Assembly (NCBI RefSeq): GCF_030684315.1
Contig: NC_081365.1
Span: 77,166,127 to 77,230,126, forward strand
Length of the DNA: 64,000 nt
Reading direction: 5' to 3'
Source: Stegostoma tigrinum
Taxonomy: Eukaryota
The notes under the pieces were generated by a model, which did no database searches, had not been told where the DNA came from, and was given only the letters and a program-made list of their open reading frames with translations. The translations under genes and the position numbers were made by a program. Shown here piece by piece: positions 4,362-61,315 of this stretch (positions are counted from its first letter, which is position 1; each line of letters opens with the position of its first letter).

Positions 4362-5162
4362 GAATTTGTTCACCCCAACCCAACACTGGCAAATCCTCAT
4401 CATGACTCACAAACTTAAATTATGAATATTTACTGAAAACAATTCTGGTGCCAGACTGGAACTGTGAGAAACTTTACTGTGAGTCATCCTTAGTCTATAA
4501 CACAGCCTTAACCAATCTTGTGCCCTTGGTCCAATTGTCTACTTCATCCAAGAGACTTCAATTTTGCAAAGTGTTCTCTTATGTGACACTTTACCAAAAC
4601 ACATTTAAAGGCTCATATGCTCAAAAAATATCTCCATTCCCCACATCTAACTGCACTCCCAAACATCCAGCCTCTCTGTTACTTCTTCGAAGATCTCAGT
4701 CAAGTTAGTAAAAATGATATTCCCTGATCTTTGGCCTTCTGCTTGTGGCAATCAATTTTATTAAAGATCATTTTTCTTGAAGCTTAATTTAGGACAGGGA
4801 TAAGGAAATTTTCTCTCTCTCTCTCTCCTTTAGGGGACCATGTATCTGTGGAAGAGCGATGGAGACATGTTTGTTGATACCCTTCAACTCACTTTATCAA
4901 AGATGTTTTCAGGAAAGTATTGCTCAGGGTCCAATCAGATTGGCCATGATCTTATTAAATGGCAGAGTAGGCTTCAGGGGCTGAATGGCCTACTCCCATT
5001 TGCCTGTTTGAATGTAGGTAACAACTTCCCCATTGCCAAAATTAAACTGACGGGCCAGGAGTATTTTTCTAGCCTTTCTTGAACAAGAGGTTAATGTTTG
5101 TAAGTCTCCAGGCCTCTGGCACCTGTACCTAGGGAGGATTGGAAGACTGTGGGCAGAAGCTT

Positions 5163-11396: not shown

Positions 11397-11574
11397 CCTG
11401 ATGTCTTTGGTTGCTAATTCACTTCAACCAGAGCAAAACCATGTGAGAGATAGAGAGGAGGGGGCGGTGGGGCTCAAAAAATGCACAGCAGGATCCCAAC
11501 ACTCTGGGGCCCTACAACATGCTCAACAACAGAGCAAACAAAAGGAACTGAGGAGAGGGGCTCAGTGTCTGTGC

Positions 11575-21993: not shown

Positions 21994-22316
21994 CTGAAAG
22001 TTCAATAAAAAAAAGTTAGTTCAGCTTCATTGTGTTTAGATCATCATTGAGCTGTGTCAAATTTCAGATGGTCCAGCTACTTAATCTGGCCACTTAGGGA
22101 CCGTGTGCTCCTGAGATGCTGCTTGGCCTGCTGTGTTCATCCAGCCTCACATTTTATTAACTTAGGGACCATGGTTCAATTGACATTGCTTTACCCTTTA
22201 TGTCGAAGGAGTCAGAATCATAGTATATTCAAGGAGACCCTTCAGCCCATTGCACCTGTTGTGATGATACTATGGCTTTTAGAGGTGTATTTGGTCCTGG
22301 TATCTTTCTAAGAAAA

Positions 22317-34586: not shown

Positions 34587-35189
34587 CTGGGGGAAGGGTA
34601 GAGATGTTATATCAAAGACATACATCACAGAAACAGTCCATTCAGCCTGGCCATGACTCGCTTCTCTAGACGAACCTCCCCCAGCCTTCGGGTCCATTTT
34701 CATCATTTTAATTCTTTATTCCCTTCTCACTTATGCCCTCATTCAAACTCCAACTTCAGTTGAAATTCCACAATCCCCATGAAATCCATTAGAACACAAC
34801 ACTTCCTGTTGCACTGGCCGGGATTTTTGTGATTACAGGCATAGCAGAACTGTGGACATTCAATGTTATCAGCGTGTGAAATGGATAGCAATTTCAGCCG
34901 CCAGCACATTCTCAGTTAGATTTTGTAAATTGCTGTCAGTCACAGCCTGCTCCTTTGCTGCATTCACTGAGTTACTCACCCCTGAGGCAATCAGCGTAAT
35001 ATCGATATTCAGCATTAAACACCCTGTCCAAGCTGCACCAAGCGCTGAAAAAGTTTCTCAATCTCTCAATGTTCTTTGCACCAAAGAAACAGGCCCTTGA
35101 GCCCACCGTATCTATCACAAGCACCAAATTACGTTGGCCCCATTCACCTGCACTTATTCCATGGCCTACTAGCCCTGACATTTTAAGTA

Positions 35190-35400
35190 AAAACCGAAAG
35201 AACTGCGGATGATGCAAATCAGGGACAAAAACAAAAGTGACTGGAAAAGCTCAGCGGGTCTGGCAGCATCTGTGAAGGAAAAAACAGAGTTAACGTTTCG
35301 GGCCCGGTGTCCCTTCCTCAGAACTCACCGGACCCGAAACGTTAACTCTGTTTTCTCCTCCACAGATGCTGCCAGACCTGCTGAGCTTTTCCAGCAACTT
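35190..35400. mobile_element. Fold-back Penelope-like terminal-repeat element
   Basis: Inverted arms 35241-35309 / 35326-35394 around the hammerhead core. Confidence 0.75.
35287..35326 (-). ncRNA. Minimal type I hammerhead ribozyme (intact core)
   Basis: Minus strand GAGUU CUGAGGA A GGG acaccggg CCC GAAA CGUU AACUC: core boxes, stem II, palindromic ACGU in place of stem III, 5-bp stem I GAGUU/AACUC. Confidence 0.75.
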
Positions 35401-36582
35401 CTGACATTTTAAGTGCTCATCCAGATGCTTCGTAAATGTCATGAGAGTGCTTATCTCCACTGCCCTCTCAGGCAACACATTCCAACCTCTAGGGGAGAAA
35501 ACAATTTTCTCAGAACTCCTCTAAACCGTTTCCTCCGCACTTTAAATTTATGCCCTCTGGTCTTAGACATGTCTGCCATGGGGACAGAGTTCTTACAAAT
35601 TACACTCTCATAATTCTGTAGTCCTCAATAAGATCCCATCCTCGACTTCCTCTGCTCCACAGAAAACAAACCCAGTCTATCCTTTCTCTCCCTTATAACC
35701 GAGACTTTCCACCACTGGCAACATCCTGGTGAATCTCCCCTGCACCTTCTCCTGTGTAATCATGTCCTTCCGATAGTGTAGCTCACTGGGTTCCATCTGT
35801 GGCCTAACCAATGTTTTATATAGTTGTAACAAGACTTCCTTTCTACACTCTGGCTAATGAAGGTAAGCATCCCATCTACCTTCTTCTATATTATTCCACT
35901 CAAGCCATACACAATGTTGAGGTATAGCTCCTCACCTTCCAATGGGTTTTTAGCAGGTTTCTAGACTCAACAATGAGTTCAACAATTTCAAACTTTTAAT
36001 GTCTGTTCCCCCTTTTGCTTCCTTTCTTCGGTTCTGTCTGGCCTCTCTGTTGTTGGACTGTAGCCATACTGCTATTCATATTTCTTATGGTCATACCTCT
36101 TGTTTCTTCAACCCCCCTCTAGGCGCACCGTCTCCTTTCAATGATAATAAATCTTACTATCTTTCAAATTTTCCTCTGAGAGGTCATCCGTCTGAAATAT
36201 TAATTTCACTTCTCTGGCTTGCTAAGAACTATCGACATTTTCTGTTTTTTATTTTATATCTCCAGCATCCACATTATGTTGTTTCCAGAAAGATTCATTT
36301 GAATGAGCTTTTCAAGGACTTACCAATTTATGGTTATAGCTAAACCCCTCTCTGGCCCTGACACACTAACTTTGGAAATCCGTGTCCAACGATAAACATT
36401 CTAAAGATTTTTAAAATAATAATGACTTTTAAAATGTTTAATACTTCAGATTCCACTATTATCTGTCTATGATCTATCCAGTGACAGTCTTCAACCTTCC
36501 TAAAAGGATTTCAAAAAAACAGACAACCTGTGCTTTTAATTGTATCAGAGATAATGGGAACTGCAGATGCTGGAGAATTCCA

Positions 36583-36766
36583 AGATAATAAAATGTGAGG
36601 CTGGATGAACACAGCAGGCCAAGCAGCATCTCAGGAGCACAAAAGCTGACGTTTAGGGCCTAGACCCTTCATCATGATGAAGGGTCTAGGCCCGAAACGT
36701 CAGCTTTTGTGCTCCTGAGATGCTGCTTGGCCTGCTGTGTTCATCCAGCCTCACATTTTATTATCT
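36583..36766. repeat. 92-bp-arm palindrome (1 mismatch, no spacer) made of two Penelope terminal repeats
   Basis: agataataaaatgtgagg...cccttcatca|tgatgaaggg...cctcacattttattatct; axis 36674/36675; element extends left to ~36545. Confidence 0.92.
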
Positions 36767-37070
36767 GTGCTTTTAATTCCCTGGTTTGTTTTACAAAAGA
36801 TTTTCGTTCTTCATTCTGATTCTCAGTGAGCCCGTTTTCCAGTCAACCACACATACTCTGTGGTTTGTACTGGGATCTCACTGCCCTGTTCTCCCCTCAC
36901 TGACAACAGGTGGTTCTGGGATTTCTATGCCCACTCTCCCCTTGCCGACCAGTAGGTGGTGTTGAAATCAAATATGTCACAACTGGGGAAAGGATACCTT
37001 CTAAATATTTGTGGTCAACTTTCTCCAAAGTTATGGCCAGCAGTGTCCTAAAACTGGGTGACTAAACTTT

Positions 37071-37195
37071 TTCTGATGAAGGCCCGAAACGTCAGCTTTT
37101 GTGCTCCTGAGATGCTGCTTGGCCTGCTGTGTTCATCCAGCCCCACACCTTGTTATCTCAGATTCTCCAGCATCTGCAGTTCCCATTATCTCTGA
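37071..37195 (+). mobile_element. Penelope terminal repeat with hammerhead core missing part of stem II
   Basis: ttCTGATGAaggcccGAAACGTCagcttttgtgctcctgagatgctgc...cagttcccattatctctga. Confidence 0.75.
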
Positions 37196-37739
37196 CTAAA
37201 CGCAACAGGCTATTATTACACCAGAGTAAAAACAAGATAAAGAATAGTTCACTTCCAAAAATGGCCCACAGTCCAGCAGCAAATGAACTTTCCACATCAA
37301 GGATAATGGAGCAGAATTATGCTTGAATGGGCATTGGGTGACATAATCAGTCCTTATAATGTTTATAAATTGTTCTTATCGTATCTCCCTACCTATCTGT
37401 TACCTTTACACTTATTAAAACTACAATTAGGGTGCTGATACTCAGAATCACAACCCTTCCTTTACCCAGCAAAGTCTTTTAATTAATTCTGGTCAAATTT
37501 CTAGCTGTGCAGAATGGATTGGAGGGCAAATATATCTGAAAGGTTCTCAGAAAAAGAGTTACTCTTTGGAATGTTAATCATGGGACACAGATTTCCAAAG
37601 TTAGCGTTTCAGGGCTAGAGAGGGGATCTAGCTATGACTACAAATTGGTATGTCCCTAATGAGCCATTTATAAAACCACTGCACTTTCCAGCAACACTTA
37701 GACCACAGTGTCTGTACTCATGCTCCTACAGCAATCCAT

Positions 37740-38200
37740 TACCAATCCCACTGCCCCACCCTCTCCTCAATCAATCTCAGCAAATCAGTCTTTTTTTCTC
37801 CTAAATTCCCAAGTATCAATCCCAAATATATCCCTCTGTTTGACTCCCTACCATTGCATCAATTCCAATTCTAATCCCACGAACTCATTCTCTCCCCATA
37901 ACCCTGTATCAATCCCAAACTCTCCCCAAAGTCCTGTATCAATCTAAAACTATTCCTATTCCCTCTCCATAGCTTTATATCAATCCCAAAGTAATTCATT
38001 TGTCTCACTCCCTCCCCGTAGCCTTGTATCAATTCCAGACTAATCCCCTGCTGCCCTGCTCCCTCTCAATAGCCCTGCATCAATCTCAATCTAATCCCAC
38101 TGCCCTGCTCTCTCCCTACACTACTCTATCTATACCAAATTAGCCCCACTATCCCACTCTCTCTTCATAGCCCTGTGCCAATCCCAAACTGACCCACTGC
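37740..38200. repeat. Degenerate ~50-bp C-rich tandem repeat
   Basis: Recurrent aatcccactgccctgctctctccc.atagccctgtatcaatcccaaact. Confidence 0.7.
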
Positions 38201-38781
38201 TGACAAAATAGCTGTGTAATCTCAATTTCCAAATTGTCAACCATATTTCTCTTCCCCAGTATTATCCTGGTGAATCATTGGCCACAAACATATCACTATT
38301 ATTGAGTCATACAGCGTGGAAACAGACCCTTCGGTCCAACCAGTCCATGCCAGCTATATTCCCAAATTAAACTAGTCTCACCTGCCTGCACTTGGCCCAC
38401 ATCCCTCCAATCCTTTCCTATTCATGAACTGATCCAAAAGTCTTTTAAACATGGTAACTCTATCCACATCCATCACTTTGTCTGGAAGTTCATTCCACAC
38501 ATTCTGTGTAAAAAAGTTTCCCCTCGTGTCCTTTTGAAATGTTTCTCCTCTCACCTTGAAACATGCCCCCTACTTTTGAACTCCCCCACCCTAGGGAAAA
38601 GACCCTCTTCATTCACCTTATCTATGCCGCTCAACCCCCGAACTGCTAGCCGACCAGCGTTTAGAATAAACACCTCATGACTTGTCTCCTCCTCTCGTAA
38701 CTTCTGCCCTCAAAGAATTTGCGAACCATTTTTGCCCGAAGCTGCCCAATCCCATTTCACGCTGTTGAGGGTCCGACCTAC

Positions 38782-38893
38782 CCCACTTTCCGGGTGTCCG
38801 TCCCATGAACTCCTTTGTGTCAGGATTCCAGACAAAGCGTTTGAATTCTTCCATGCGTTGATTGCAAGTCTTCTTCTCATTGAAAGTTGCCAT
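38782..38893 (-). CDS. ATP4B: H+/K+-ATPase beta-like, exon 1: MATFNEKKTCNQRMEEFKRFVWNPDTKEFMGRTPGKW
   Basis: ATG at 38893; TGG G|gtagg; 112 nt; EKKTC.QRMEEF...WNPDT...GRT...W closely resembles the ATP4B N-terminus; joined CDS 858 nt = 285 aa. Confidence 0.92.
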
Positions 38894-38993
38894 TGTTCAA
38901 ATCTCTGTGGGTTGACAGTCCAAATGGGGCAAAGTCAAGTTTGTTGCAAAACGAGTGAAATCGTTATGGGGGGGCGGGAGCACCGAGCAATCC

Positions 38994-39183
38994 TCTTATA
39001 GCAATGACGTGGTGCCACCAAACTGTAGCCAGGGACGTAAAGCACAGCTCAGAGCATTCCTAAGATATCAGCACTGTTTAGATTAGTGTAAATGGATCAA
39101 TAGCTATGCTACTATGAAGTGACTTCCTGACTGTGTGCTCAGTTTACAATAATCCTGCAGCACACGAGGTGATAACTTTATCA
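38994..39183 (-). promoter_or_regulatory. Putative promoter of the ATP4B-like gene
   Basis: TATAAGA (minus, 39000-38994), CRE-like TGACGT (39005-39010), inverted GATA pair TGATAActTTATCA (39170-39183). Confidence 0.5.
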
Positions 39184-40261
39184 TGCTTGACTATTCTAAT
39201 GTAAACTAACTTCATCAGCAGGCCTGAAACTCTTGCGATTTTTTTTTCAACAGGCTCACTTACAATCCAAGGACACTGCAGGAACTCAATGGGCTGACAC
39301 TATCCGGTACCAAAAGTGACAATCTAGAGCCACATCACTCCCAGCCTCATAGATCCCACCCTCTCCATCCCAGTCAGATCTCCACCACAAGGCAGCAGCT
39401 ACGTAAAGACTGGCCTCCAGACACAAATCTCTTGTTGCTACCACTCTAGCCAAGAGCAATTATTGTTTTTATTTTTTGCTGGTAACACAATCATTTGCTC
39501 CCCATCCCTAGCTGTCCTTGAACTGAGTGACTTGCTGGGCCATTTCAGAAAGCGTTGAGAAGATTGCTGAGGGTCTGGAGTCACATTTGGACCAGACAGA
39601 ATAAGGACGGTAGATTTCCTTCCCAAAAAGACATTGGTGTACCAGATGGGTTTTTACTTCAATCCAACAGTGACGATTATCTCAGAGAACACAATGTAAT
39701 CTTTATCAGGAGGGTCGAACGGCCGAGTAGTGGCAAATGGAGTTTAACTTAAATAACTGCGAGGTGCTGCATTTGGTAAGACAGATCAGGGCAGGACTTA
39801 TACACTTAGTGGTAGGGTCCTGGGGAGTGTTGCCAAAAAAAGATGTTGGTGGGAAGGTTCACAGTTTCTTGAAAGTGGAGTCGCAGGTAGACAGGATTCT
39901 GAAGGCGGCTTTCGGTACACTTGCTTTTATTGGTCAGTGCTGATATCATTGGAGAGCTCTTAACTCCTGCACTTTATGTCTCTGGCTATAACTTGGTGAC
40001 GTCACATCATTGCTATGAAAGGATTGCTCGATATACACCCCCCCACGCCAACATAACGCTTTTACTGGTTGTCCAACATTGAGTGTCATGTTGTGCGTAT
40101 ATAGGACATTGGGTAGGCCACTTTAGGAATTCTGCTTGCAGTTCTCATCTCCCTGCTATGGGAAAGATGTTGTTAAACTTGAAAGGGTTCAGAAAAGATT
40201 TACAAGGATGTTGCCTGGGTTGGAGGGTTTGAACCACAGCGAGAGGATGAATAGGTTTACA

Positions 40262-40570
40262 GGCACCACGGTGGCTCAGTGGTTAGCCCTGCTGCCTCAT
40301 AGGACTAGGGACCTGGGTTTGATTCCACCCTCAGCTGACTGTCTGTGTGGATTTTGCACATTCTCCCCGTGTCTGCGTGGGTTTCCTCTGGGTGCTTCCC
40401 ACAGGCCAAAGATGTGCAGGCTAGGTGGATTGACCATGCTAAATTGCCTGTAGTGTTCAGGGCTGTGTAGGTTAAGTGGGTTATAGGGCGATGGGTCTGG
40501 GTAGGAAGCTCTGAGGGTTGGTGTAGACTTGTTGGGCTGAAGGGCCTATTTCCACACTGTAGGGATTCTA
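40262..40570 (+). mobile_element. HE1-like V-SINE inserted in a CR1 fragment (~39730-40965)
   Basis: ggcaccacggtggctcagtggttagc head, ctgtagggattcta tail; CR1 peptide on both sides. Confidence 0.8.
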
Positions 40571-41084
40571 TAATGAGGTTGGGACAACTTGCTTTGGAGG
40601 TTGAGAGATGACCTTATAGAAGTTTATAAAATCATGAGGGACATGGATAGGGTGAATAGCCACAGTCTTTTTCCCAGGATAGGGGAGTCCAAAACTAGAG
40701 GGTATAGGTTTAATCTGAAGGGGAAGGATTTAAAAAGGACCATGCAAAAATGGTGCATGTATGGACTGAGCTGCCATGGGGAGTGGTGGAGGCTGGTACA
40801 ATTACAACATTTAAAAGGCGTCTGGATGGGTATATGCATAGGAAGGGTTTAGTGGGATATGGGCCAAGTGCTGACAAATGGGACTAGATTTATTTAGTAT
40901 ATCTGGTCAGCATGGATGAGTTGGACCAAGGAGTCTGTTTCCATGCTGTACAGCTCTATGACTATAACATAGTCTCATGGCCACTGTTACTAAGAATAGC
41001 TTTCAATTCCAGATATATTAATGAATTGAACCTAAATTCCACCAGTTCCTATGGTGGGCTTGAACCCATGTCTCCTGGCATCAA

Positions 41085-42220
41085 CAACTTTGAGGGCCCA
41101 TGGTGTTCGAGGTGAGCCACTGGCTTGGATTGAGGATTGGCCGTCTGACAGAAGGCAGAGAGTTGGGATAAAAGGCTCTTTTTCGGAATGGCAACCGGTG
41201 ATGAGCGGTGTCCCGCAGGGTTCAGTGTTGGGGCCGTAGCTGTTCACCTTATACATTAATGATTTGGATGAAGGGACTGGGGGCATTCTGGCAAGGTTTG
41301 CTGATAATACAAAAATAGGTGGACAGGCAGGTAGTACTGAGGAGGTGGGGAAGCTGCAGAAAGATTTAGACAGTTTAGGAGAGTGGTCCAGGAAATGGCT
41401 GATGAAATTCAATGTGAGTAAATGTGAGGTTTTGCACTTTGGAAAAAAGAATACAGGCATGGACTATTTTCTAAATGGTGAGAAAATTCGCAAAGCAGAA
41501 GTACAAAGGGATCTGGGAGTGTTGGTCCAGGATTCTCTAAAGGTTAACTTGCAGGTAGAGTCCGTAATTAAGAAAGCGATGTAATGTTGTCGTTTATCTC
41601 AAGAGGGTTGGAATATAAAAGCAGCGATGTGCTTCTGAGGCTTTATGAAGCTCTAGTTAGGCCCCATTTAGAATACTGCGTTCAATTTTGGGCCCCACAC
41701 CTCAGGAAGGACATACTAGCCCTGGAGTGTGTCCAGTGAGATTCACACGGATGATCCATGGAATGGTAGGTTTAACGTATGATGAATGGCTAAGGATCCT
41801 GGGATTGTACTCGTTAGAGTTTAGAAGGTTGAAGGGAGATCTAATAGAAACTTACAAGATAATGTATGGTTTAGAAGGGGTGGACGCTAGGAAGTTGTTT
41901 CCGTTAGGTGGGGAGACTAGGACCCGTGGGCACAGCCTTAAAATTAGAGGGGGGTAAATTTAAAACTGAAATGAGACGACATTTCTTCAGCCAGAGAGTG
42001 GTGGGCTTGTGGAATTCATTGCCACAAAGTGCAATGGAGGCCGGGACGTTGGATGCCTTCAAGGCAGAGATCGACAAATTCTTGATCTCAGAAGGAATCA
42101 AGGGCTATGCGGAGAGTGCAGGGAAGTGGACTTGAAATGCCCATCAGCCATGATTTAAATGGCAGAGTGGACTTGATGGGCTGAATGGCCTTACTTCCAC
42201 TCCTATGACTTATGGTCTTA
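41085..42220 (+). mobile_element. Young CR1 subfamily copy, frameshifted (same subfamily as 54325-54950 and 62908-63540)
   Basis: GVPQGSVLGP, RFADNTK motifs; 3' half nearly identical to the GDF-intron copies; cttatggtctta tail. Confidence 0.85.
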
Positions 42221-44180
42221 ACTCTGGTGCAGATATAAGTTCCCAAAAATAACTGGGTGAGAATTATGTACCACTACTGACACAGTGTATGGGTCGATCA
42301 ACAGATTGATAGCTGGCAAGTAACATTCACTCCACACAAATGCCAGCTCGGTCCATACACACCTCCAACAAGAGAGAATTGATCATCCCTCCTTGACATT
42401 CAATGGTGCTGTAATGCCAACTCCCTCTCTGTCAACATCCTTGGGAGTTACTGTGGACCATAAACTGAACTAGACCAGCCATATTGGTCTCCTTATTTAA
42501 GGAAGGATATAAATACATTGCAGGCATTTCAGAGGAGGTTTACCAAGAATGATACCTGGAATGAGTGATTTGTCTTATGAGGAGAGATTGGACAAGCTGG
42601 GCTTGTTTCCAGCAGAGGTTAGAGGAGTGAGGGGTAATTTGCAGGAGGTGCATAAAATCAGTGAATGATCTTGACAAGCCTGACCTGGAAAGGATGTTCC
42701 CTCTTGTGGGTTTGTTTTAAAATTAAGGGTCACCCCTTTAGGACAGAGATGAGAGGAAAGACCGTCTCTCTGAGGGTTGTGTGACCTCAGAACTCTGCTG
42801 CAGAAGTCAATGAAGGTGGAATAATTGGATATTTTAAGGCAGATGTTTGTTAGGCAGGAGAAACAGATGTTACTGGGGGCCAGATGGGAAAGTGAAATTC
42901 AGAACACAAACAGATAAATCATGACCTTATTGAATGGCTGGGCAGACTTGAAGGGCTGATTGATATGTTTCTGTTCCTAATTCATACTTTCATATACAAA
43001 TACTGCGGCTACAGGAGCAGGACACAGGCTAAGAATTCAGCAGAGTGATTCGCCTCTCCAAAGCCTGTCCATCACCTACAAGGCACAAGTTTGGCTTGTA
43101 ATGGAATACTCCTCTTTTGTCTGGATGGGTGCAGCCTCAACAACACTCAAAAAGCCTAACACCATCCAGGACAAAGCTTGATTGGCATCGCATTCACAAA
43201 TGTTCACTTCTTTACTGCCAGTGCAGATCAGCAGCAGTGTGTACTATCTACAAGATGCACTGCAGAAATTCACCCAAGATCCTCAGGCAGCACCTTCCAC
43301 ACCCACGACCCACTTCCATCTCAAAGGACAAGGGCAGCAGATACATGGGAACACCATCACCTGCAAGTTCCCCTCCAAGCCACTCGCCATCGTGACTTGG
43401 AAATACGTCGCCGTTCCTGTCACTGTCGCTGGCCCCAAATGCTGAAATTCCCTCCTTGAGGGCATTATGGGTGCCCATTTACCCCTGGACTCCAGTGAGT
43501 CAAGGAGGGAACTTCCCACCATCTTCAAAAAGCCATGTGTAACAAACGCCTGATTAACCATTCGTGTGGTGAATGTATAAATACAAACCTTTATAAAGAA
43601 AATGTCTGGTAACTCTATCTCGTTCTCGTTTGTGGGATCCTGCTGTGCTCCAAGTAGATATGGTTTCCCTCTACAAGCCGCGAGACGTCTGTAGCTCAGC
43701 GACAACCTACTCTTCAAACCACAGGAAGCTTGCAAAAGGCACGACACACGTGCAGGTGAAAAGGAGTCTAACTGTACAGAGATTTATAGCGATCTTCAGC
43801 CAACTTCTTGGGAAAATATGATTTTAAAGAGGGAAACATGATGAATACTTAATATGGTTACATCTTTTTTCTAGCCAGGAGCTTCCCAGCATCAATATTT
43901 TTAACAGAGCTGTGGGCCACCTCGTACTTTAATAACCATTATCCAACCATTGCAGTGGGCATCACAGAACTGTTTAATTCTGAACATCCTGTGTTTTTGA
44001 GATGAGTTTGCAGTCCTCCCATCACACATTGAAGGAAATCTGGATGAGTTAAACTGAAATTAACTCTGCTCTTAACTGAAATTAACTCTGCTCTTAAGCT
44101 GTCAGTTTCACTGTGAGTTTGAGGATATCTTGGGTTATAAGAGGGTCTAGTTTAGTCTGGGAACATGGTCAGCATGGACT

Positions 44181-44507
44181 AGAATCATAGAATCTGTACA
44201 GCGTGGAAACAGACCCTTTGGCCCAACAAGTCCACACTCACCCTCAGAGCATCCCATCCGGTCCCATTCCCCTCTAACCCACCTAATCTACACATCCCTG
44301 AACACTATGGACGATTTAGCATGGACAATCCACCTAGCATGCACATCTTTGGACTGTGGGAGGAAACCGGAGCACCTGGAGGAAACCTATGCAGGCACAG
44401 AGAGAATGTGCAAACTTCACACAGACAGTCACCCGAGGCTGGAATCGAACCCGGGTCCCTGGCGCTGTGAGGCTGCAGTGCTAACCACTGAGCCACTGTG
44501 CTGCCCC
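44181..44507 (-). mobile_element. HE1-like V-SINE, near full length
   Basis: Minus: ggggcagcacagtggctcagtggttagcactgcagcctcacagcgccagggacccgggttcgattcc ... gattctatgattct tail. Confidence 0.85.
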
Positions 44508-44510
44508 AAA

Positions 44511-44578
44511 CAAGTACTAACCCGGCCTAGTCTGCTTAGCTTCCAAGATCGGACAAGATTGGGCGTTTTCAGACTAGT
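44511..44578 (-). pseudogene. 5S rRNA gene fragment (about nt 13-81), lacking box C and 3' third
   Basis: Minus: actagtctgaaaacgcccaatcttgtccgatcttggaagctaagcagactaggccgggttagtacttg aligns to vertebrate 5S (..CGCCCGATCTCGTCTGATCTCGGAAGCTAAGCAG..GCCTGGTTAGTACTTG). Confidence 0.85.
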
Positions 44579-46232
44579 TTGTTGGATCGAAGGGTCTGTT
44601 TCTATGTTAAGAACATAGAACATAGAACATAGAAAAGTACAGCACAGTACAGGCCCTTCGGCCCACGATGTTGTACCGTGGAATAATCCTAATCCAAAAA
44701 TAAAATAACCTAACCTACATTCCCCTTAACTCACTGCTGTCCATGTGCATGTCCAGCAGTCGCTTAAATGTCACTAATGGCTCTGCTTCCACGACAATCT
44801 CTGGCAAACTATTCCATGCGCTCACAACTCTCTGGGTGTAGACAGATGGAACGCAGGCTACTTCAGGAGAAGGCATTATGGTTGCCACCAGGATAATGGG
44901 CATTCAACTACTCAATGGGTTGTACAAGAACACTAAATTGACAGCTAAATCCACTAAACTCTCTGAATAGATGCACTCATCAAAATACATCCAAAACAAA
45001 CTTGCATTGAACAGCAGAAATAAATCAAAAACATCTCATTTGCAAGTTGAATGTTAATGGGGAAGTCTGTCATGCAGCTGAGTGTTATTAACACTGGATG
45101 TGTCCGTGTTTTGAAAATACACACAATATTAGTTAGAACAAGCATATCAACTAGATCAGAAAAAGCTAGAAGCATGTCTTATGCCATGTTCTTATCTCAG
45201 GCTTCTGTAGTACTGGCATCAACAATGGTCCACCTCTTAGACACCTCTTTCTGGAACAAAGATCCAAAATATTCAGTACTCTTAACATACGTGTGCTTGG
45301 CATTGGAGGCTTACACCTGAAACAGATACTAAGCCCTCCATGTCTGCAGATAAGGAATTTAACTTTCTGTTTAATGACTCTTTTATCACAATGTTTTACT
45401 CAAATTGGGCAAGCTGCAATCAAGAAAACCATATCTTCATGTGGCTTAACTACCAATCATTATAGGAACAACTCCATGCTGGCAGCAGAAAAAAATGTTT
45501 AAAGAAACATTAACCTGACTCTAGAATCTGATAATACAGGTATAATATCAATCACCCTACATTTAAAACACAGTTGCTCAATGCTATTCTCGACCCTCAT
45601 TGCAACTCTTGGTCCATCTCTTCCCTTCTTCTAAATTCAGGCTGAACTACCAGACATGCAGCTGACATAAATTTAAAAGTTTTTCATTGTTTAAGTCCTA
45701 CAAACATCCAGCAGCTGCCCATACGAGCCATACAATGTAAAAGAAGACTGTGAACCAACATTGTGTGGTTCTCATGTCCATCTATTCCAATGAAAATATC
45801 ATTCACTTTTGAGACCGAACTTTAGACAGCTTTTTCTTTGACTTTGACACATCACACCATGTTTCTTCAATGCACTGACTTTGGTTCACGGATGCCTTCT
45901 ATGTTTTTTTGGTGATTCAAACTGAATGCAGTGCTTAACATGTGGTCTGGTTGGTGACACATTGAACATTGAGTCTGTTAGGGCTTCAGACACATTGACT
46001 TCAGGTAAAATATTATTAACTTAGAATATAGATTTTATGAAAGAGCCTAAGCCACAGTTCTTTGAATATTTTTAAGACAGATAAAGATAGATTCTTGATC
46101 AACAAGGAAGTCAAAGGTTTTTGTGGAGGCAGGGATGTAGATTTGAAGCCCCAATTTGATCAGCCATAATCTTATTGAATGGCAGAGAGCATTAGAAAGG
46201 CAAAATAACCCTCTCATGCTCCTAATTCATAT

Positions 46233-46363
46233 CTTATTGCTAACTTTTGCAAATTTCATAATACTGCAATAGACCTAAAACATTGTCTCTTTTTTTTCTT
46301 ATTACTAACTTTTGCAAATTTCATAATACTGCAATAGACCTAAAACATTGTCTCTTTTTTTTC
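46233..46363. repeat. Two-copy tandem duplication (~66 bp) abutting a Penelope terminal-repeat remnant
   Basis: ctaacttttgcaaatttcataatactgcaatagacctaaaacattgtctcttttttt twice, followed by ccacagatgctgcctgacctgctgag. Confidence 0.8.
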
Positions 46364-47842
46364 CTCCACAGATGCTGCCTGACCTGCTGAGTATTTTGAT
46401 TTTAGATTTCCAACATCTGCAATAGTTTGCTTTTTGCATCTAATAAGGAGTATGGTGCCAGATTTTGGTAAAGGCTTTTGAACACTTATAGGCTAATCAC
46501 GCTTATGATATGTCAGGAATTCCAATTCAGAATACAACTCTCAAGGTGATGATTGGAGAGTAGCAGTTTCCACAACCCTGGAAAGATAACAAAATGGAAT
46601 TGGAATGGTATGAGATGGTAGAGGACAAGTGTAAGGTTCCCAACTTGAAAACGATGGGAGGACGAAAACCATTTTCACAAATCAGTAGATAGTGAGCATG
46701 CTTAAACTGACCTCTTTGCCTATTGGGAAGGGTCGAAGTTGTACTATTCTTTCTAAACCTGTGTTCACCAAATTATTTCTGTCGGGGAAGAGGACAAAGG
46801 TTGTATGACTCTATGTCTCTGAAGAACCATCCGATATGATCAAAACTTCACAAAAACAACCCTCTCCTGCTTTTAAAAGAGCAGTCTTTGCCAGTTTGAT
46901 GCCAGCCAACCTTCAGCTTTGATGCTTTGTGAGGGTAGCAGCTGCCACAATGACACGCAGGAAAAAGCAGGGATCATGGTGTGGGATCTTTCCTGTGGGA
47001 CCTTATGAATCCCTGAGCTCTGGGGATCTGAACAGGTATTGCTTGCTGTGTTGGGGAAGTGACAATAATTTGGTAATTATTAGTAGCAAGAATATCTGAA
47101 CTGCAATAAACTAATCAGCTTGGCCCAGCAGCTAATTCGACGATAGCTCTATTGTATTTTTTCCTTTCTCCCTGCTCTCTGATATTCATTTTTAGCCATT
47201 TTTATCTCTCACAGTCACGGAAATTTCAAATGTACAACAGGAGACGTAGCACAGTGTACAGAGGGAAATGGAACAGACCGTATAAAGAGAGAGAGAGAGA
47301 GAGAGAGAATGCATTGTGTCACCTTCCTCTTCTTAAACAATACCTCAACTTCAAAGATAACTTATAAACAGGTAGGCCTCTCGACCTTTTGAGCTTGCGT
47401 CCCATTCGATAAGATCATTGCTCAGCTGTTTTAATCTCATCTCTACATTTCTGCAGACTCCCAATAATCTTTCATCCCTTTGGTATCTATCCACTTCTGC
47501 CTTAAAAATATTTTAAAATTCTGCATCTGTTGCCTTTTGAGGAAAGGAATTCCAATGCTTGGAATTCCAATTCCAATTAGGTGGGTTATAGGCAGATGGG
47601 GCTGGGTGGGATGCTCTGAGGTTTGGTGTAGACTTATTGGGCTGAAGAGCCTGTTTCCACACCGTAGGGATTCTATATCAAAGGGCTAGGGATTCTAATG
47701 CTGTACCTCCAGCTCCACACTGTGTTGCCTTGTTGCAAGAATGATGCCTGGATGTCAGGGGTGAAGTTATGTGGAGAGATTGTACAAATCAGGCCTACCT
47801 TCTCTAGAAGGTTAAGGGTGATATGATCAAAGTCTTCATGAT

Positions 47843-50240
47843 TTTTTTTATTACTCCTGGGGGACATAGGTGTTGCTGGCTGGCCAGCATTTTGAGAACG
47901 TGTCTCAAAGCCTGTCCCTTGAGAAGGTGGTAGTGAGCTGCCTTTTTGAACCATTACAGTCCATCTGCTGCAGTTTGACCCACAATGTCCTTAGGGAGGG
48001 AATTCCAGGATTTTGACCCAGCGACAGTGAAGGAACAACAATATATTTCCAAGTCAGAATGGGGAGGGGCTTGGAGGGGAACTAGCCGGGGGTGGTGTTG
48101 CCATGTATCTGCTGTCCTAGCCCTTATAGATAGAATTGGCCATGGGTTTGGGATTTGCTGCCTAGGGATCTTTAGTGAGTTTCTGCATCTTGTAGATGGT
48201 ACACACTGATGCTACTGAGCGTTGTGGTGGGGGGAGTGAGATGCTTGTGGATGTGGTGCCAATCAAGCGGCTGCTCTGTCCTGGATGGTGTCGAGCTTCT
48301 TGAGTGTTGTTGGGGCTGCACCCGTCCAGGCAAGTGGGGAGTATTCCATCTCACTCCTGACTTGTGCCTTGTAGGTGGTGGACAGGCTTTGGGGTGTCAG
48401 GAGGGGAGTTACTCACCGCAGTATTCCTAGCCTTTGACTTGCTCTTGTAGCCACTGTGTTTCTGTGGAGAGTCTGATTGATTTTCTGGTCAAAGAATGTT
48501 GATTGTGGGGCAATTCAGTGATAGTAATATCATTGAATATCAAGGACCAGTGGTTTGTTTGACTTTCAGATTGTCTTTTAGTGGAAATTGTCATAGCCTG
48601 GCTTTTGCATGGTGTGAATGTTACTTGCGACTTGTCAGCCCGAGCTTGGATGTTATCCAGATCTTGGTGTATTTGAACATGAACTGCTTCAGTATCTGAG
48701 GAGTCACAATGGTGCTGAACATTGTGCAAGCATCGGTGAACATCCCCATTCTGACCTTATGATGGAGGGAAGGTCTTTGAGGAAGCAACTGAACATAGTC
48801 AGGCCTAGGACACTACCCCAAAGAACTCCCGCAGAGATGTCCTGAATTTGTGATGACTGACTTCCAACAACCACAACCATCTTCCTATGTGCCAGGTATG
48901 ACTCTAATCAGCGGAGAATTTTTTTCCCCAGTTCTCATTGATTCCAGCTTTGCTAGGGCTCCTTGATGCCACACTCAGTCAATTGCAGCCATGATATCAG
49001 GCGCTGGACCAGTCACCTCACTCTCTGGAATTCAGCTCTTCTGTCCATGTTTGAACCAAGACTGTAATGAGTTCAGGAGCTGAGTGGCCCTGGCGGAACC
49101 CAAACTGGGCGTCACTGACCAGGTTATTGCTGAGCAGGTGCTGCTTAATAGCGCTGTTACTGACACCTTCCATCACTTTACTGATGATTGAGAGGAGACC
49201 GATGAGGCGGTAATTGGCCGGGTTGGATTTATCCCGCTTCTTATGTACAGGACATACTTGAGCAAGCTTGCACGGTGTCAGGTAAATACCAGTGTTGTAA
49301 CTGTACTGGAACAGCTTGGCTAGGGGAGCAGCAAGTTCTGGAGCACAGGTTTTCAGTACTATTGCTGGGATGTTGTCAGGGCCCATAGCCTTTGCAGTAT
49401 CCATTGTCTCCAACCATTTACTGATATCACGTGGAGTGAATCAAATTGGGTAAAGACTGGTATCTGTAATGCTGGGGATCACTGGAGGAGGCCGAGATGG
49501 ATCTTCCACTAGGCACTTCTGACTAAAGATTGCGGTGAATGCTCCAGCCTTATCTTTTATGCTAATGTATTGGGCTCTTCCATCATTGAGGATGGGAATA
49601 TTTGTGGAGCCTCCTCCTCCAGTGAGTTGTTTAATTGTCCACCACCATTCACTACTGGATGTGGCAGGGCTGCAGAGCTTAGATCTGATCCGTTAGTTGT
49701 GGGATCGCTTAGCTCTGTCTATCACTTGCTGCTTAGACTGTTGGTATTCAAGCAGTCCCGTTTGCTGGCTTCATCAGGATGGCACCTCATCTTTGGGTAT
49801 GCCTGGGACTGTTCCTGGCATACCCCCCTGTACTCTCCATTGAACCAGGATTGATGCCCTGACTTGATGGTAATAGTTTAGTTGGGGATATGCCAAGCCA
49901 TGAGGTTACAGATTGTGCTGGAGTACAATTCTGCTGCTGCTGATGGGCCACAGAGCCTCATGGATGCCCAGTTTTCAGTTGCTAGATCTGTTCTAAGTCT
50001 GTCCCATGCTGGTGATGCCACTCAATATCATGGAGGGTATTCTCAATGTGAAGGTGAGACTTCATCTCCAAAAGGACTGTGCAGTGGTCGCTCTTACTGA
50101 TATTGTCATGGACAGATGCATCTGCAGCTGGTAAGGAGAAGGTTAAGTATGTTTTTCCCTCTTGTTGGTTCCCTCACCACCTGCTGCAGACCCAGCTAGC
50201 AGCTATGTCCTTTAGGACCTGACCAGTTTGATCAGTAGTG
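47843..50240 (-). mobile_element. CR1/L2-group LINE, ~2.4-kb degenerate copy
   Basis: KAMGPDNIPAIVLKTCAPELAAPLAKLFQ..NYRLIGLLSIISKVME..QFGFRQGHS RT region; poly-T end at ~47843. Confidence 0.85.
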
Positions 50241-50287
50241 TTAACAGGAAAAGACAAATTAGATAAACTATTTCCACTAGTTGGGGA

Positions 50288-50441
50288 GAGAGATAACAAA
50301 GTGTGGGGCTGGATGAACACAGCAGGCCATGCAGCATCTTAGGAGCACAAAAGATGACGTTTCAGGCCCAAAACGTCAGCTTTTGTGCTCCTAAGATGCT
50401 GCTTGGCCTGCTGCGTTCATCCAGCTCCACACTTTTATCTC
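50288..50441. mobile_element. Fold-back Penelope mini-element with 15-bp target-site duplication
   Basis: Inverted arms around tttcaggcccaaaa; tccactagttgggga at 50273-50287 and 50440-50454. Confidence 0.8.
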
Positions 50442-52625
50442 CACTAGTTGGGGATTCTAGAACTGTGGGCATAGTCTGAGAATTTAGGACCAGGCCATTC
50501 AGGAGAGACGTTAGGAAGAAAGTCTACACACAAAGGGTGGTAAATGTTTGGATTTCTCTTCCACAAATGGCTATGGGTGTTGGATCTGTTGTCAATTTTA
50601 ATTCTGAGATAGACATCCTTTTGTTAAGGAAAGGTATTAAGGGAAACAAGTCAAAAGCAGGTTATTGGAGTTAGGTCACAGATTAGTCATGACCTCATTG
50701 TGGAGCTGAATGGCCTATTGGTGTTGTTATAGATGCCATTCCCCTCCCATTCCTGAGGTACAAAACTTCTACCATCAGTGCTAAACCCTTCCTACAGTTC
50801 AACAGAGGTGAATATTCCAACCTCCGAAACTCTGGGATGTTAGGAAGGAAATTTCCGCAGCTGGACATGATGACCTGGGATGTACTACCCAACAAGGGCA
50901 CAGACAAGACATCAATCCGAACCATCAAAAAGAAACCAGATGTCTATCTGAACCAGGCAAATCTCTCTTGGCTTCAAGGAAATTGCCAGCAGCTGGTGCT
51001 TTGGGATAGCACACAACCGCTGTCAATTGCGCTGAATGGGATCTTTCAGTTTATATCAACTCACTGCATGAAAGAAATTTAATGGAAGTTTATCTTATGA
51101 TTTATTGGAGGAAATCCAAGTCAAAATAAAGATTCCATTGAGACCTGACCATTCTGATGTGACATCATCAATCTGAAATGTTAACTCTGTTTCTCTCGAA
51201 ATCAGATGTTGGCAGGCCTGCTGAGTTCCTCCAACATTTTGTTTGTATTTCGGATCTTCCAATGATTTCCATTTGCATTGCTCCAAAAATCATCCTCTAA
51301 CTCAACATCAAGTGGCACACAATTTGATTTATAAGTTACATAAAGTTACACAGAACAATGTTATCACCCAGAGAGTGGGGAGACTAAGGAATGCAGTGCC
51401 TGGGAGTGTAGTTGAGGCAGGAAACCTCACAACTTATGTAAAAGTACTTGGATGAGCACTTTAAGTGTCATAACGTTCAAGGCTATGGGCCGATTGCAAG
51501 AAAGAATGGGAAGTAGTATGTAGTTGGCAGCATCGACTCAATGGACTGAAGGGCTTCTTCCATAGAAACCGCAAAAAGTGGGCCAATCTTCTCTATGTCA
51601 ATCCAAACGCACCCAGATCCCTTCGCTAACCCTATCTTGCTGCACACAGCCCATAGCCCTGTAGCCTACAGCACATAAGGTGCATCTCCAGGTACCTTTT
51701 CTTTAAAAATTAGTTTAGGTTCTCCAATTTCGCCACTGATTTAGGCAGCAAATTTCAGATACCAACCTTTATGCAAAATCATTTTCCCCTCTCATCCCTT
51801 CTAAAATTCCTGCCACGTTCGTTGAAACTATATCCCCTAGTTTTTGACCTCTCTGCCGGGGGAAATCGGGTTCAGCCTGTCTACTCCATCTCTACTCCTG
51901 ACAATTTTGAACACAACGCAGTACAGTTCTATGATTTAAGCAACTGACCCTCCCAGACAATGATGAATCCCAGACAGAGAAATGCCAGATTACACCAGAT
52001 ATTGGCAATCACATCGACTGGGGACCATTCAGATGAATCATCGTGAACTATGTTAATGTTGTACAGGGCTTTGGTGAGGCCTTTTCTTGAGTTCTGTGTC
52101 CAGTTCTGGCTAAAGGAAGGTTATTAAGCTGGAGAGGGTTTAGAGAAGATTGACCAGCACGTCACTGGGAATAGAGGGTTTAACTTATGAAAAGCTGGAG
52201 AGTCTGGGACCTTTACTCGCTGCAGCACAGGAGGTTGAGGGGTAAGCTTATAGATGTTGATACAATCATGAGAAGGATAAATAAAGTCACTGACTGGTGC
52301 CATTCCGAGAGTGAAGGATTTTCAAAGTTAGTGGACACATTAAGGTGAAGGGAGAAAGAATTTTAAAAAAAAGTCATGACTGATTGTTTTTAAAAAAGAA
52401 AATTAAAATGAGTGGCTCACGTGAAGAATAAACTTCCAGAGGAAGTGGTTGATGTGGGTACAGTTACAACATTTAAAAGACATTTGGATAAATACATGAA
52501 TAGGAAAGGCTTGGAGGGATATGGGCCAAGCGCAGGCAGGTGGGACGAGGCTCTTGTGAAGAGGATAATAAAGTGTGAAGCTGGATGAACACAGCAGGTC
52601 CAGCAGCATCTCAGGAGCACAAAAG

Positions 52626-52658
52626 CTGACGTTTCGGGACTAGTCCCTTCATCAGAGA
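52626..52658 (-). ncRNA. Minimal hammerhead ribozyme core within a Penelope terminal repeat (~52564-52660)
   Basis: Minus: uCU CUGAUGA A GGGAC UA GUCCC GAAA CGUC AG; all core residues intact, stem I only ~2 bp. Confidence 0.65.
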
Positions 52659-52840
52659 GGAGTGAAGAGGAGCTTGGGATGATGGTTGGCATGGACTGGT
52701 TACACCAAAGGGTCTGTTTCTGTGCTATATCAATCTACGACTAATAATAAGACTCTGCAAAGCAAACTGGAAAACTGTCATATTTGGGCATAAAGACGAA
52801 AACCAACTTGACACCGAAAATTATAGTTGGGAAGCAAACG

Positions 52841-53737: not shown

Positions 53738-53759
53738 CTGACAAACAAGGGATAGGATA

Positions 53760-55438: not shown

Positions 55439-56690
55439 TTACTGGTTTCAGTGAGGAGATTGGAAGCTCATCTTGGGGTCAGATGTGACACCAAGTTTGT
55501 GAACAGATATGTAAATAAGTGATGAGTTGGAGACCATGGGGGAGTGGAGAGAGGTGGTGCTGATAGAGAAAGAGCCAGGAGCTGTCAGTGTGATCAGAGA
55601 GATAGAAATAGGAAGGTGTGGGGGTGGGGGTGGGTGAAGGTGAAATGGAATCTGGAGACAAATGGGAGATGGGGTCAAGGGGAAGGTTTGGATGCTTGTT
55701 CAGGCCAACAGTTGTTTTTCTGAGGCAACAGCAGATTTAAAAGAGAGGGAGGGAAAACACTTGAACACATGTTCCCGAATGTTAAACATCTGCACAACCA
55801 GCAAATGGGGCAGATCAAAACAGCCCTCTGGGTGGGCACGCTGACCCCAGGCTGATCCCTCCAACACAGAGTTGCACACTGACCCCAAGTTGACAACAAA
55901 TTCCCCTCCTCACCCCTCGTTTCCAGGTGACACAAACCCCAGGCTGACCTCCCCTCCTCCCTGGTAATGCCAAGCCCACACAGACACCACTTGCCTCAGG
56001 AACTCAGACAGAGCTGTCCCCCAGCCCTCCCAAAGGAAACAGGGACTCCCCGATTGACAGCCCAACCCTACACCAAAGCGGATGGGGGTCTACCAGTTAA
56101 GGTAAAGTTGTGATAACAATTAAAGGCTCAAATACATTCACCAGTCATTGATACCCAGCCAGAAGTGATAACAGAGCCTCCCACATTCCTCAACAGGACA
56201 GGAGCAGTGCAGCCCCCTTCCGGGGTATGGAGTGTCATTCAGAATTTACTACAGGCAGGGGATACAGGGTTTACCACAGGCACAGGATCCTGCCGCTCTG
56301 CAATCCCTGCCAATGGTTATCCCCTGCTCCGGGTTCCTCACAAATTTTGTTTCTCTCATCCTGTCAGCAGCTCTTTCCCGACATTTCCTCCTCATTAAAT
56401 TTTCCCTCAAAACCCTATTGATGATATTTCAGAGATAGTAGGAACTGCAGATGCTGGAGAATCTGAGGTAACAAGGTGTAGAGCTGGATGAACACAGCAG
56501 GCCAAGCAGCATCAGAGGAGCAGGAAGGGTCTAGGCCTGAATGCTGCTTGGCCTAGTGATGATATTGTCCTCACTCTGGGTGGTAGTGAGTACCAGATTC
56601 TAATCAGCGAGGAGTATCCAGCCTGGCTGACCCCTCTCAGCCTCCTCTCCCTCCCCACCCTCCCACTCACTCTGCCTCAGGGTTACTTAC

Positions 56691-58097: not shown

Positions 58098-59146
58098 GAT
58101 AACAAGGTGTGGAGCTGGATAAGCACAGCTGGCCAAGCAGCACCTTAGGAGCTCTTATAGTGTCTTACTACGCATCATCCTCCGACACTTCCGCCATCTA
58201 CAATCCAACCCCACCACCCAAGACATTTTTCCATCCCCAACCTTGTCTGCTTTCCGGAGAGACCACTCTCTCCGTGACTCCCTGGTCTGCTCCACATTGC
58301 TCTCCAACGCCACCACACCCGGCACCTTCCCCTGCAACCGCAGAAAGTGCTACACTTGCCCCCACACCTCCTCCCTCACCCCCATCCCAGGCCCCAAGAT
58401 GACTTTCCACAGTAAGCAGATGTTCACCTGCACATCTGCTGATGTGGTATACTGTATCCATTATACCCGGTGTGGCTTCCTCTACATTGGGAAAACCAAG
58501 CGGAGGCTTGGGGACCACTTTGCAGAATACCTCCGCTCGGTTCGCAATAAACAACTGCACCTCCCAGTCGCGAACCATTTTAACTCCGCCTCCCATTCCT
58601 CAGACGACATGTCCATCATGGGCCTCCTGCAGTGCCACAATGATGCCACCCGAAGGTTGCAGGAACAGCAACTCATATTCCGCTTGGGAACCCTGCAGCC
58701 CAATGGTATCAATGTGGACTTCACATGCTTCAAAATCTCCCCCTCCCCACTGCATCCCAAAACCAGCACAGCTCATCCCCGCCTCCCTAATCTGTTCTCC
58801 CTCTCACCTATCCGCTCCTCCCACCTCAAGTCGCACCTCCATTTCCTACCTACTAACCTCATCCCGCCTCCTTGACCTGTCTGTCCTCCCCGGACTGACC
58901 TATCCCCTCCCCACCTCCCCACCTATACTCTCCTCTCCACCTGTCTTCTTTTCTCTCCATTTTCGGTCCGCCTCCCCCTCTCTCCCTATTTATTCCAGAA
59001 CCCTCTCCCCATCCCCCTCTCTGATGAAGGGTCTAGGCCCGAAACGTCAGCTTTTGTGCTCCTGAGATGCTGCTTGGCCTGCTGTGTTCATCCAGCTCTA
59101 CACCTTGTTATCTCAGATTTTCCAGCAACTGCAGTTCCTCTTACAA
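58098..59146 (+). mobile_element. 5'-truncated Penelope-like element: inverted terminal piece, GIY-YIG endonuclease, terminal repeat; 11-bp TSD
   Basis: ORF 58243-58875 CNRRKCYTC...VVYCIHYTRCGFLYIGKTKRRL..HF.E...VANHFN...EQQLIFRLGTLQPNGIN; cattcagccca at 58087-58097 and 59147-59157. Confidence 0.88.
59018..59051 (+). ncRNA. Minimal hammerhead ribozyme core in the Penelope terminal repeat
   Basis: uCU CUGAUGA A GGGUC UA GGCCC GAAA CGUC AG; predicted cleavage after C59048. Confidence 0.7.
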
Positions 59147-60760: not shown

Positions 60761-60904
60761 GTAAGTAACCCTGAGGCAGAGTGAGTGGGAGGGTGGGGAG
60801 GGAGAGGAGGCTGAGAGGGGTCAGCCAGGCTGGATACTCCTTGCTCATTAGAATCTGGTACTTACTACCACCCAGAGTGAGGACAATATCATCACTAGGC
60901 CAAG

Positions 60905-61315
60905 ATAATAAAATGTGAGGCTGGATGAACACAGCAGACCAAGCAGCATCTCAGGAGCACAAAAGCTGACGTTTCGGGCCTAGACCCTTGATCAGAGAGG
61001 GGGATGGGGGGAGGGAACTGGAATAAATAGGGAGAGAGGGGGAGGCGGACCGAAGATGGAGAGTAAAGAAGATAGGTGGAGAGGGTGTAGGTGGGGAGGT
61101 AGGGAGGGGATAGGTCAGTCCAGGGAAGACGGACAGGTCAAGGAGGTGGGATGAGGTTAGTAGGTAGCTGGGGATGCGGCTTGGGGTGGGAGGAAGGGAT
61201 GGGTGAGAGGAAGAACCGGTTAGGGAGGCAGAGACAGGTTGGACTGGTTTTGGGAGCTGGGGATGCGGCTTGGGGTGGGAGGAAGGGATGGGTGAGAGGA
61301 AGAACCGGTTACAAG
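60905..61315 (-). mobile_element. Penelope terminal-repeat insertion private to copy B intron; hammerhead core mutated (CUGAUCA)
   Basis: Absent from left arm (empty site at ~56547-56550); caag at 60901-60904 and 61312-61315; internal ~55-bp duplication at its end. Confidence 0.85.

Follow-up and report, generated by a model that had tools for sequence, protein, structure and literature searches.

Short Head-to-Head Insertions Derived from Penelope-like Elements in Stegostoma tigrinum and the Probable RNA Start That Places Their Axis at the Hammerhead Ribozyme

Introduction

Why short palindromic inserts should fold back, time and again, at or within a hammerhead ribozyme is the question raised by a 64,000-nucleotide stretch of the 3.2 Gb genome of Stegostoma tigrinum (the window; positions 77166127-77230126 of contig NC_081365.1, assembly GCF_030684315.1). 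An earlier note on this stretch described hairpins consisting of inverted terminal repeats of Penelope-like elements (PLEs), and proposed that the ribozyme structure or its cut end determines where reverse transcription stops or switches strand, giving rise to a non-coding class possibly mobilized in its own right. How PLEs make inverted repeats, tails, and pseudo-long terminal repeats (pseudo-LTRs) is an open question, and a 2024 in vitro paper leaves the post-priming steps unvalidated (PMC11167929; statements on papers cited here concern the sections of each that are drawn upon). The reading that we consider probable is that the inserts are independent, dead-end insertions of endonuclease-bearing (EN+) PLEs, in which arm ends 4 nt before the ribozyme core represent run-off at the 5′ end of a capped RNA, and the arms represent two complementary DNAs (cDNAs) made from two nicked target strands and joined.

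Architecture of the Fold-Back Inserts

The hairpins of the window comprise three families, A (elements at 36545 and 50288), B (35190), and C (4206), each displaying a minimal hammerhead core, decayed in the family C fold-back (at 4281). The four hairpins, their three sequence families, their origin from PLE terminal repeats, and the existence of a stereotyped non-coding class of 150-230 bp are confirmed. The true inserts span 4208-4404, 35189-35400, 36542-36766, and 50288-50439. The description of these as only two inverted terminal repeats holds for the arms and misses a one-sided tail of 35-45 nt, present in 3/4 main inserts beyond the limits first given. Similarly, the earlier note gave a target duplication, of 15 bp, for one insert, but target duplications flank 5/5 inserts when an old relic is included (13, 14, 14, 15, and 10 bp). 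Positions are numbered after PMC4209133, with C3 of CUGAUGA as +1 and the predicted hammerhead cut after +28. On this scale, the 36545 element shows a blunt +2/+2 join at 36674/36675, and the final 5 nt of its tailed arm equal the sequence following the tail in N-terminal copies; the joins of the 35190 and 4206 elements lie at about -3/+12 and -6/+14, respectively (both by eye), and that of the 50288 fold-back at +15/+16, at GGCC in stem II, with both arms tailless, a rare class. Contigs of run X6, possibly the assembly's own sample, span both flank-to-arm junctions of the 36545 element and not its center. The relic at 56429-56556 has a duplicate copy at 61312-61433.

The genome was sampled by 152 stretches of 10 kb, evenly spaced at pre-chosen positions (1.52 Mb in total), which contain 82 head-to-head family A pairs, 80 of them usable. 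Left out were 15 arms located at the edge of a stretch, those arms whose 3′ end falls below +70, and 2/82 family A pairs. Family A arm ends were mapped on 23/68 natural long copies, a BLAST peak at 0 from one reference being partly an artefact; the mapping of family C comprises 10 arms on one imperfect long reference. A query-free scan of the same sample disclosed 102 short inverted repeats, of which 74 belong to family A, a dominance showing that the window hairpins are not due to chance; 26 of the other 28 also derive from PLE ends (by eye). Short family A pairs occur at about 41 per Mb, that is, roughly 130,000 genome-wide by extrapolation.

The pairs follow rules of composition. Exactly one arm is tailed in 77/80 family A pairs, with single family A arms tailed in 80/160 cases; the corresponding values for family B are 16/18 pairs and 21/52 single arms. 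The 3′ ends of family A arms cluster near +92..94 and +127..129, from which we infer two reverse transcriptase (RT) start sites, at +92..94 and +127..133. Target duplications of 9-18 bp flank 61/78 pairs, compared with 3/390 in a swapped-flank control. In addition, the two arms are matched in length, the family A pairs comprising (i) 63 short-short, (ii) 15 long-long, and (iii) 2 mixed pairs, where 25.6 mixed pairs are expected, and subfamily alleles agree between arms at 98/101 sites across 30 young pairs (0.705 on average and 0.873 at most after shuffling). The simplest reading is that each target strand, and each start site, gave rise to one cDNA, both having been copied from a single RNA and then linked by repair.

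Snap-back or self-priming, in which one cDNA, or an antisense template (PMC3846280), folds and is copied back, would equally yield arms of identical allele and matching length, joined at palindromes, and 28/63 short family A pairs do show an overlap at the junction. This alternative is nevertheless improbable: a copied-back arm can neither outreach its template in the 5′ direction nor gain a tail, and among 77 pairs the tailless arm reaches further 5′ in 25, the tailed arm in 33, and both end within 2 nt in 19, a difference that in long pairs can be as large as 780 nt. This comparison could be blurred by later deletions of the center on one side, but the stop of the second arm at +92..94, the same end as that of single tailless copies, is left without explanation by snap-back.

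Arm Ends and the Probable RNA Start

The 5′ ends of 307 family A arms are far from uniform. Their hazard per 100 nt is 6.1 at -5..+2 and 0.14 at -16..-2000, a ratio of 44, with intermediate values of 1.0 at -15..-6 and 0.4-2.1 at +3..+55; a cliff at -8 bounds the pile-up upstream and a tail extends downstream of it. The pile-up holds 84 ends, 51 in pairs and 33 in single arms, from young and old copies alike; its occurrence in single arms implies that folding back does not produce it. With an abrupt cliff upstream and a tail downstream, the profile resembles a template end that was subsequently trimmed. Family B behaves in the same manner, with 47/61 arms that reach +3 ending in -6..+3. Breakpoints spread uniformly along the repeat would have contradicted the earlier note; instead, the axis midpoint falls within -8..+28 in 50/63 short family A pairs, and at least one arm reaches -8..+2 in 38/63. 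Among 44 listed copies with an ORF (open reading frame) start, 20 were examined, of which 7 begin at -1..+7, 2 at +34..39, and 7 further upstream, the other 4 being joined within or after the tail.

From the pile-up, the cut site is about 31 nt downstream, and a TATA-like box lies 30 nt upstream, close to the usual TATA-to-start distance of about 30 nt. The word TATTTA occurs at -33/-34 in 64/85 long family A arms, and a TATA-like word at -32..-37 in 6/8 long copies of family B. The base at -3, in old family A copies and in family B, is the A of what we take to be an initiator-like word. Whole-genome exact counts for young family A copies give an untemplated G before the -3 end in 2910/4047 cases (A or T in 1137; 72% G), compared with 74/348 at the control end +14 (A or T in 274; 21% G), where sequence context predicts 28% and 22%, respectively. 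The count was also restricted to ends with T two bases before, since the partner arm cannot supply T, and remains at about 73% G (43 and 41 among the first 100 matches listed, counted by hand). An extra untemplated G is regarded as a sign of cap copying in L1 (PMC9341517). Altogether, a capped RNA polymerase II start at about -3 is likely, and the main reason for the position of the axis at the ribozyme would be an RNA that likely begins 4 nt ahead of it. TATA and initiator-like words have been described in the repeat of a rotifer PLE family (PMC8557442, PMC3846280); Drosophila Penelope, by contrast, has an internal promoter with no TATA box (PMC2377424). Splicing to an acceptor at the edge of the ribozyme, described for Drosophila virilis (PMC4209133), was considered and rejected, family A having no AG there and the upstream sequence not being shared among short arms.

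Stalling of the enzyme as it runs into the C-rich tract that lies upstream of the ribozyme, with addition of untemplated C, would also account for the coincidence of the cliff with the edge of the C run in family A. It is very unlikely, given that the hazard falls to background within the same C-rich tract (-16 to -500) and that family B, with no C run at this edge, displays its peak in the same place.

Role of the Ribozyme

The earlier proposal stands in part: the axis is non-uniform and is located at the ribozyme, but the main pile-up at -5..+2 lies upstream of the whole ribozyme, and an enzyme moving 3′ to 5′ has by then already passed it; that the fold or its cut end sets the stop is not supported. 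That the hammerhead sets the axis, either through a self-cleaved RNA with its 5′ end at +29 or through a fold that stalls the enzyme, draws support from the 1451 young copies beginning exactly at +29, 3-4 times the controls (443 at +42 and 348 at +14) and a count that also tells against the run-off reading, from 2/12 downstream tandem units beginning at +29, and from a hazard at +3..+40 that is 3-15 times background. These controls are unclean, the +14 word containing two CpG sites and the +42 word admitting single deletions; moreover, GG or CA precedes AGC in 57 of the first 100 listed +29 matches (hand count), and microhomology with the partner arm may contribute. Only 12/307 ends fall in +27..+32, in comparison with the 84 of the main peak, which also includes single non-inverted arms and is marked by the TATA-like box and the untemplated G. 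Family D, a fourth hammerhead family (L028, L037, L042, L065, L070, L096, L112, L118, L135, L182), possesses the ribozyme, yet 0/17 of its arms end at the pile-up, versus 93/199 (p = 5e-5); its counts rest on 23 arms, a genome-wide family D search having returned no match. Finally, insertion in vitro by Poseidon of Anolis (PAc), for which a dimer is predicted, did not need ribozyme cleavage (PMC11167929). We therefore judge a governing role of the hammerhead unlikely; the cut site is at most a minor peak or route, and may record cleaved RNA.

Proposed Mechanism

The preferred reading, run-off at a capped RNA end followed by joining of two cDNAs, would proceed in five steps. First, a TATA-initiator promoter within the terminal repeat would start a capped RNA at about -3. 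Second, the protein would nick both target strands, 9-18 nt apart, and reverse transcription would begin at two internal sites; nicking of both strands and two internal RT starts have been shown in vitro for a relative (PMC11167929). Third, one RNA, held by a protein dimer, would be copied twice, consistent with one arm coming from each start site and with the shared subfamily alleles and length class of both arms. PLE reverse transcriptases are not known to have RNase H, whose lack would leave the RNA intact for the second pass. Fourth, start sites near the cap would yield cDNAs of only about 95 and 130 nt, the cap being read as an extra C, and start sites in a downstream tandem copy would yield kilobase-long bow-ties of the same build. 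Fifth, host repair would trim both cDNAs at their 3′ ends and join them, frequently at the 4-6 nt palindromes of the ribozyme, so that the axis lands in or next to it. When the predicted RNA 5′ end was folded, neither RT start showed a clear hairpin.

Several observations weigh against this scheme. In the window, the long copy 58098-59146 is paired with a short inverted tailless arm (58097-58152), a long-short exception, and the 50288 fold-back has no tail on either arm. The concordance of alleles and lengths also fits two RNAs from one source locus, an alternative to the copying of a single RNA. As many as 103/307 arms have ends at +3..+55, which call for trimming or a premature stop, and a clear duplication accompanies only 13/35 single arms of the peak. 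Family D carries a TATA-like word at -46/-47 in 7/13 long copies, with no pile-up near -16. The G excess in family B is weak (17/39 at -4 and 31/61 at -3, hand count among the first 100 of 5787 listed), and an extra G could also arise wherever the enzyme reaches a template end or pauses and adds an untemplated C. The spacing between TATA-like word and ribozyme is equal in families A and B, which cannot separate the two, and both promoter and cap are read from DNA alone.

A further proposal, held tentatively and somewhat more apt to fail than to hold, is that PLEs have a retrovirus-like strong-stop step, in which a dimer of the protein would prime two cDNAs, one per target strand, on a single RNA at distances of 95 and 130 nt from its cap. 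Both would run off the cap and be joined into a fold-back, or one would jump to another RNA and generate a terminal repeat or a partial tandem. A hint comes from N-terminal copies: among the 12 in which a downstream unit can be seen, that unit begins at -5..+5 in 5, besides the two at +29 noted above. Partial tandems with a downstream unit beginning at -5..+5 or +29 are found in L193, L194, L197, L200, L201, L203, and L204, and look as if the enzyme had jumped from one RNA 5′ end to another RNA.

Independent Insertions and Comparison with Self-Copying Families

Are the palindromes instead a family resembling miniature inverted-repeat transposable elements (MITEs) or retrozymes, which copies itself from master palindromes? 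The very high copy number and the near-identical 184-bp copies at many loci speak for this. On the other hand, junction signatures are distinct in 62/63 short family A pairs, and the exact 28-nt center of the 36545 element recurs at 9 loci genome-wide, 7 of which were inspected and show two different subfamily alleles in the tail. Recurrence of identical junctions, the expected trace of independent amplification, is thus the exception, and the suggestion that the inserts are mobilized in their own right is not borne out; the minis also have no TATA box. Homogeneous copies from a master are not seen, nor are symmetric terminal inverted repeats with a duplication of fixed length, the tail being one-sided in 77/80 pairs and the duplications varying. 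The head-to-tail hammerhead repeats that characterize non-LTR retrozymes (LTR, long terminal repeat) are likewise missing, the arms lying head to head. Because the junctions differ and the exact junction of the window is confined to so few loci, the fold-backs arise afresh at each insertion and do not qualify as MITEs; self-copying is scarcely credible.

MITEs share the hairpin shape, and non-LTR retrozymes (bioRxiv 10.64898/2026.07.22.740005) are likewise short, non-coding, abundant, hammerhead-bearing, and PLE-derived; the inserts described here differ in lacking a master copy, a fixed length of duplication, and head-to-tail arrays, and in having asymmetric ends. Small retrozyme-like head-to-tail arrays of 300-440 bp units with inverted halves do exist in the sample (L045:7331-8433 and L134:5266-6200), their units comprising repeat, ribozyme, tail, and ORF start.

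Family Identity and Related Systems

The long copy 58098-59146 closes an ORF (frame 58123-58875) with a cysteine/zinc linker and a GIY-YIG-type endonuclease. At six loci, ORFs of 661-821 aa lie directly upstream of the family A repeat, and long family A frames display the RT motifs DKG and YIDD, the linker, and the endonuclease end (read by eye); the linker CNRRKCYTC, of CxxxxCxxC type, is present in 9/9 such frames. Judged by the motifs described in PMC8557442, family A fits an EN+ PLE of Neptune type. At three of these six loci the insertion is head to head and kilobases in length, with a tail on one arm only, and is thus built like the minis. Pfam gave no match for the 250-aa ORF fragment of the window, to which that search was limited, and an Rfam scan did not match the hammerhead, for which a dimer fold of -38 kcal/mol is predicted in family A. 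Family B, with tblastn matches to PLE proteins upstream in 4/8 long copies, is identified from its linked PLE ORF, tail, and hammerhead as an EN+ PLE. Family C, known from a single imperfect long copy with no ORF match within 1.5 kb, is assigned by hammerhead, tail, and duplication only; its TATA-to-ribozyme spacing puts the TATA word at -40. Family D shows a TATA-like word at -46 and hardly any short class.

EN+ PLE insertions are described as comprising an inverted 5′-truncated copy, a one-sided tail of 30-40 bp, and a target duplication (PMC8557442, PMC3846280), a shape that family A shares; head-to-head arms, variable duplications, palindromic junctions, and partial tandems are likewise shared with published elements. 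Different here are the dominance of a very short class, the sharp inner limit with its extra G, and the matching of arms in length class and allele. PAc is alike in its two internal RT starts bounding the tail and in the cutting and extension of both strands (PMC11167929); family A is, by contrast, Neptune-type, and the PAc account, in the sections used, maps no cDNA 3′ ends, RNA start, or inverted products. The minimal hammerheads of PLEs (PMC4209133) also lack loop III and have palindromic positions 15.2-16.2 and an extra base before stem II, and dual ribozymes lie on opposite strands 100-700 bp apart in PLE repeats; in the parts considered, that study does not map breakpoints and proposes cleavage and circles as the source of tandems. 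L1 offers a parallel in the extra G at full-length 5′ ends (PMC9341517).

In L1 twin priming, two primed cDNAs are joined head to head, but they copy different parts of the RNA, whereas both arms copy the same part here. The inverted copy, one-sided tail, duplication, palindromic junction, and opposite-strand ribozyme pairs are already published (PMC8557442, PMC3846280, PMC4209133). A cap-marked short class, pairing rules, or PLE twin priming were not found in searches of an open-access library, although subscription papers, repeat-database entries, and supplements may hold them.

Other Features of the Window

The coordinates of the PLE-derived features are collected in Table 1. An inverted duplication (53863-57392/60057-64000), 98-99% identical over at least 3.5 kb and running off the right end of the window, surrounds the long PLE insertion, with the young family A copy 60902-61311 in one arm only. 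The window further contains (i) exons of a TGF-beta family gene at 52935-53792 (-), presumably GDF1/3-like; (ii) exons of an RGS plus kinase gene at 10647-11423 (-), which we take to be G-protein receptor kinase-like; (iii) a 5S rRNA-like sequence at 44500-44590 (-), above the Rfam gathering score and abutting a repeat at 44184-44505 resembling a short interspersed nuclear element (SINE); and (iv) a 593-aa ORF at 26529-28310 (+) for a LINE-type reverse transcriptase (LINE, long interspersed nuclear element), presumably CR1-like. The fold-back at 50314-50419 matches the microRNA family mir-2756 below the gathering score. In the sample, L098:594-680 is an 87-bp palindrome, 99% perfect, unrelated to the PLE families.

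Table 1. Positions of PLE-derived inserts, arms, duplications, and motifs in the window
Feature	Position	Strand	Details
Family A hairpin arms	36583-36674/36675-36766		92 nt, 99%
Family B hairpin arms	35232-35309/35326-35403		78 nt, 91%
Family A hairpin arms	50298-50362/50371-50435		65 nt, 94%
Family C hairpin arms	4199-4275/4293-4369		77 nt, 73%
Left target-site duplication of 36545 element	36528..36541	+	14 bp; right copy 36765-36778
Family A tailed arm of 36545 element	36542..36674	-	+2 to about +133
Family A tailless arm of 36545 element	36675..36766	+	+2 to +93
Left target-site duplication of 35190 element	35175..35188	+	14 bp; right copy 35401-35414
Family B tailed arm	35189..35325	-	complete hammerhead core 35321-35296; reaches about -3
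Family B tailless arm	35326..35400	+	starts about +12, in stem II
Family A fold-back	50288..50439	.	arms +16..+93 (-) and +15..+89 (+)
Duplications of 50288 fold-back	50273-50287 and 50440-50454		15 bp
Family C fold-back	4208..4404	.	tailless arm (-) 4208-~4273; tailed arm (+) ~4274-4404
Duplications of family C fold-back	4195-4207 and 4405-4417		13 bp
Old family A fold-back (relic)	56429..56556	.	tailed arm (-) and second arm, partly deleted
Duplications of relic	56419-56428 and 56557-56566		10 bp
Single tailed family A arm	37068..37192	+	starts -4; no inverted partner; 9-bp duplication
Single tailless family A arm	52566..52661	-	starts -4; 10-bp duplication
Single tailless family A arm	22103..22159	-	starts +35; 11-bp duplication
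Young tailless family A copy	60902..61311	-	reaches -259
Long family A copy	58098..59146	+	-927 to tail; 11-bp duplication
TATA-like box TATTTAT	58987..58993	+	-33 in long copy; none in any mini
Intact minimal hammerhead, family A	59021..59048	+	C3 at 59021; predicted cut after 59048

Significance

The fold-backs are real, abundant, ordinary in kind, and informative in detail. In annotation, such inserts should be entered as PLE stubs, not as MITEs or microRNA precursors, for which the stubs can be mistaken. As a set, the extrapolated genome-wide population of short fold-backs constitutes a fossil record of cDNA ends, pointing to an RNA start and to two-sided priming, and yields precise predictions for the in vitro system now available. 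The strong-stop rule, if true, would account for tail, inverted repeat, and pseudo-LTR in PLEs, as well as for the origin of small ribozyme tandems.

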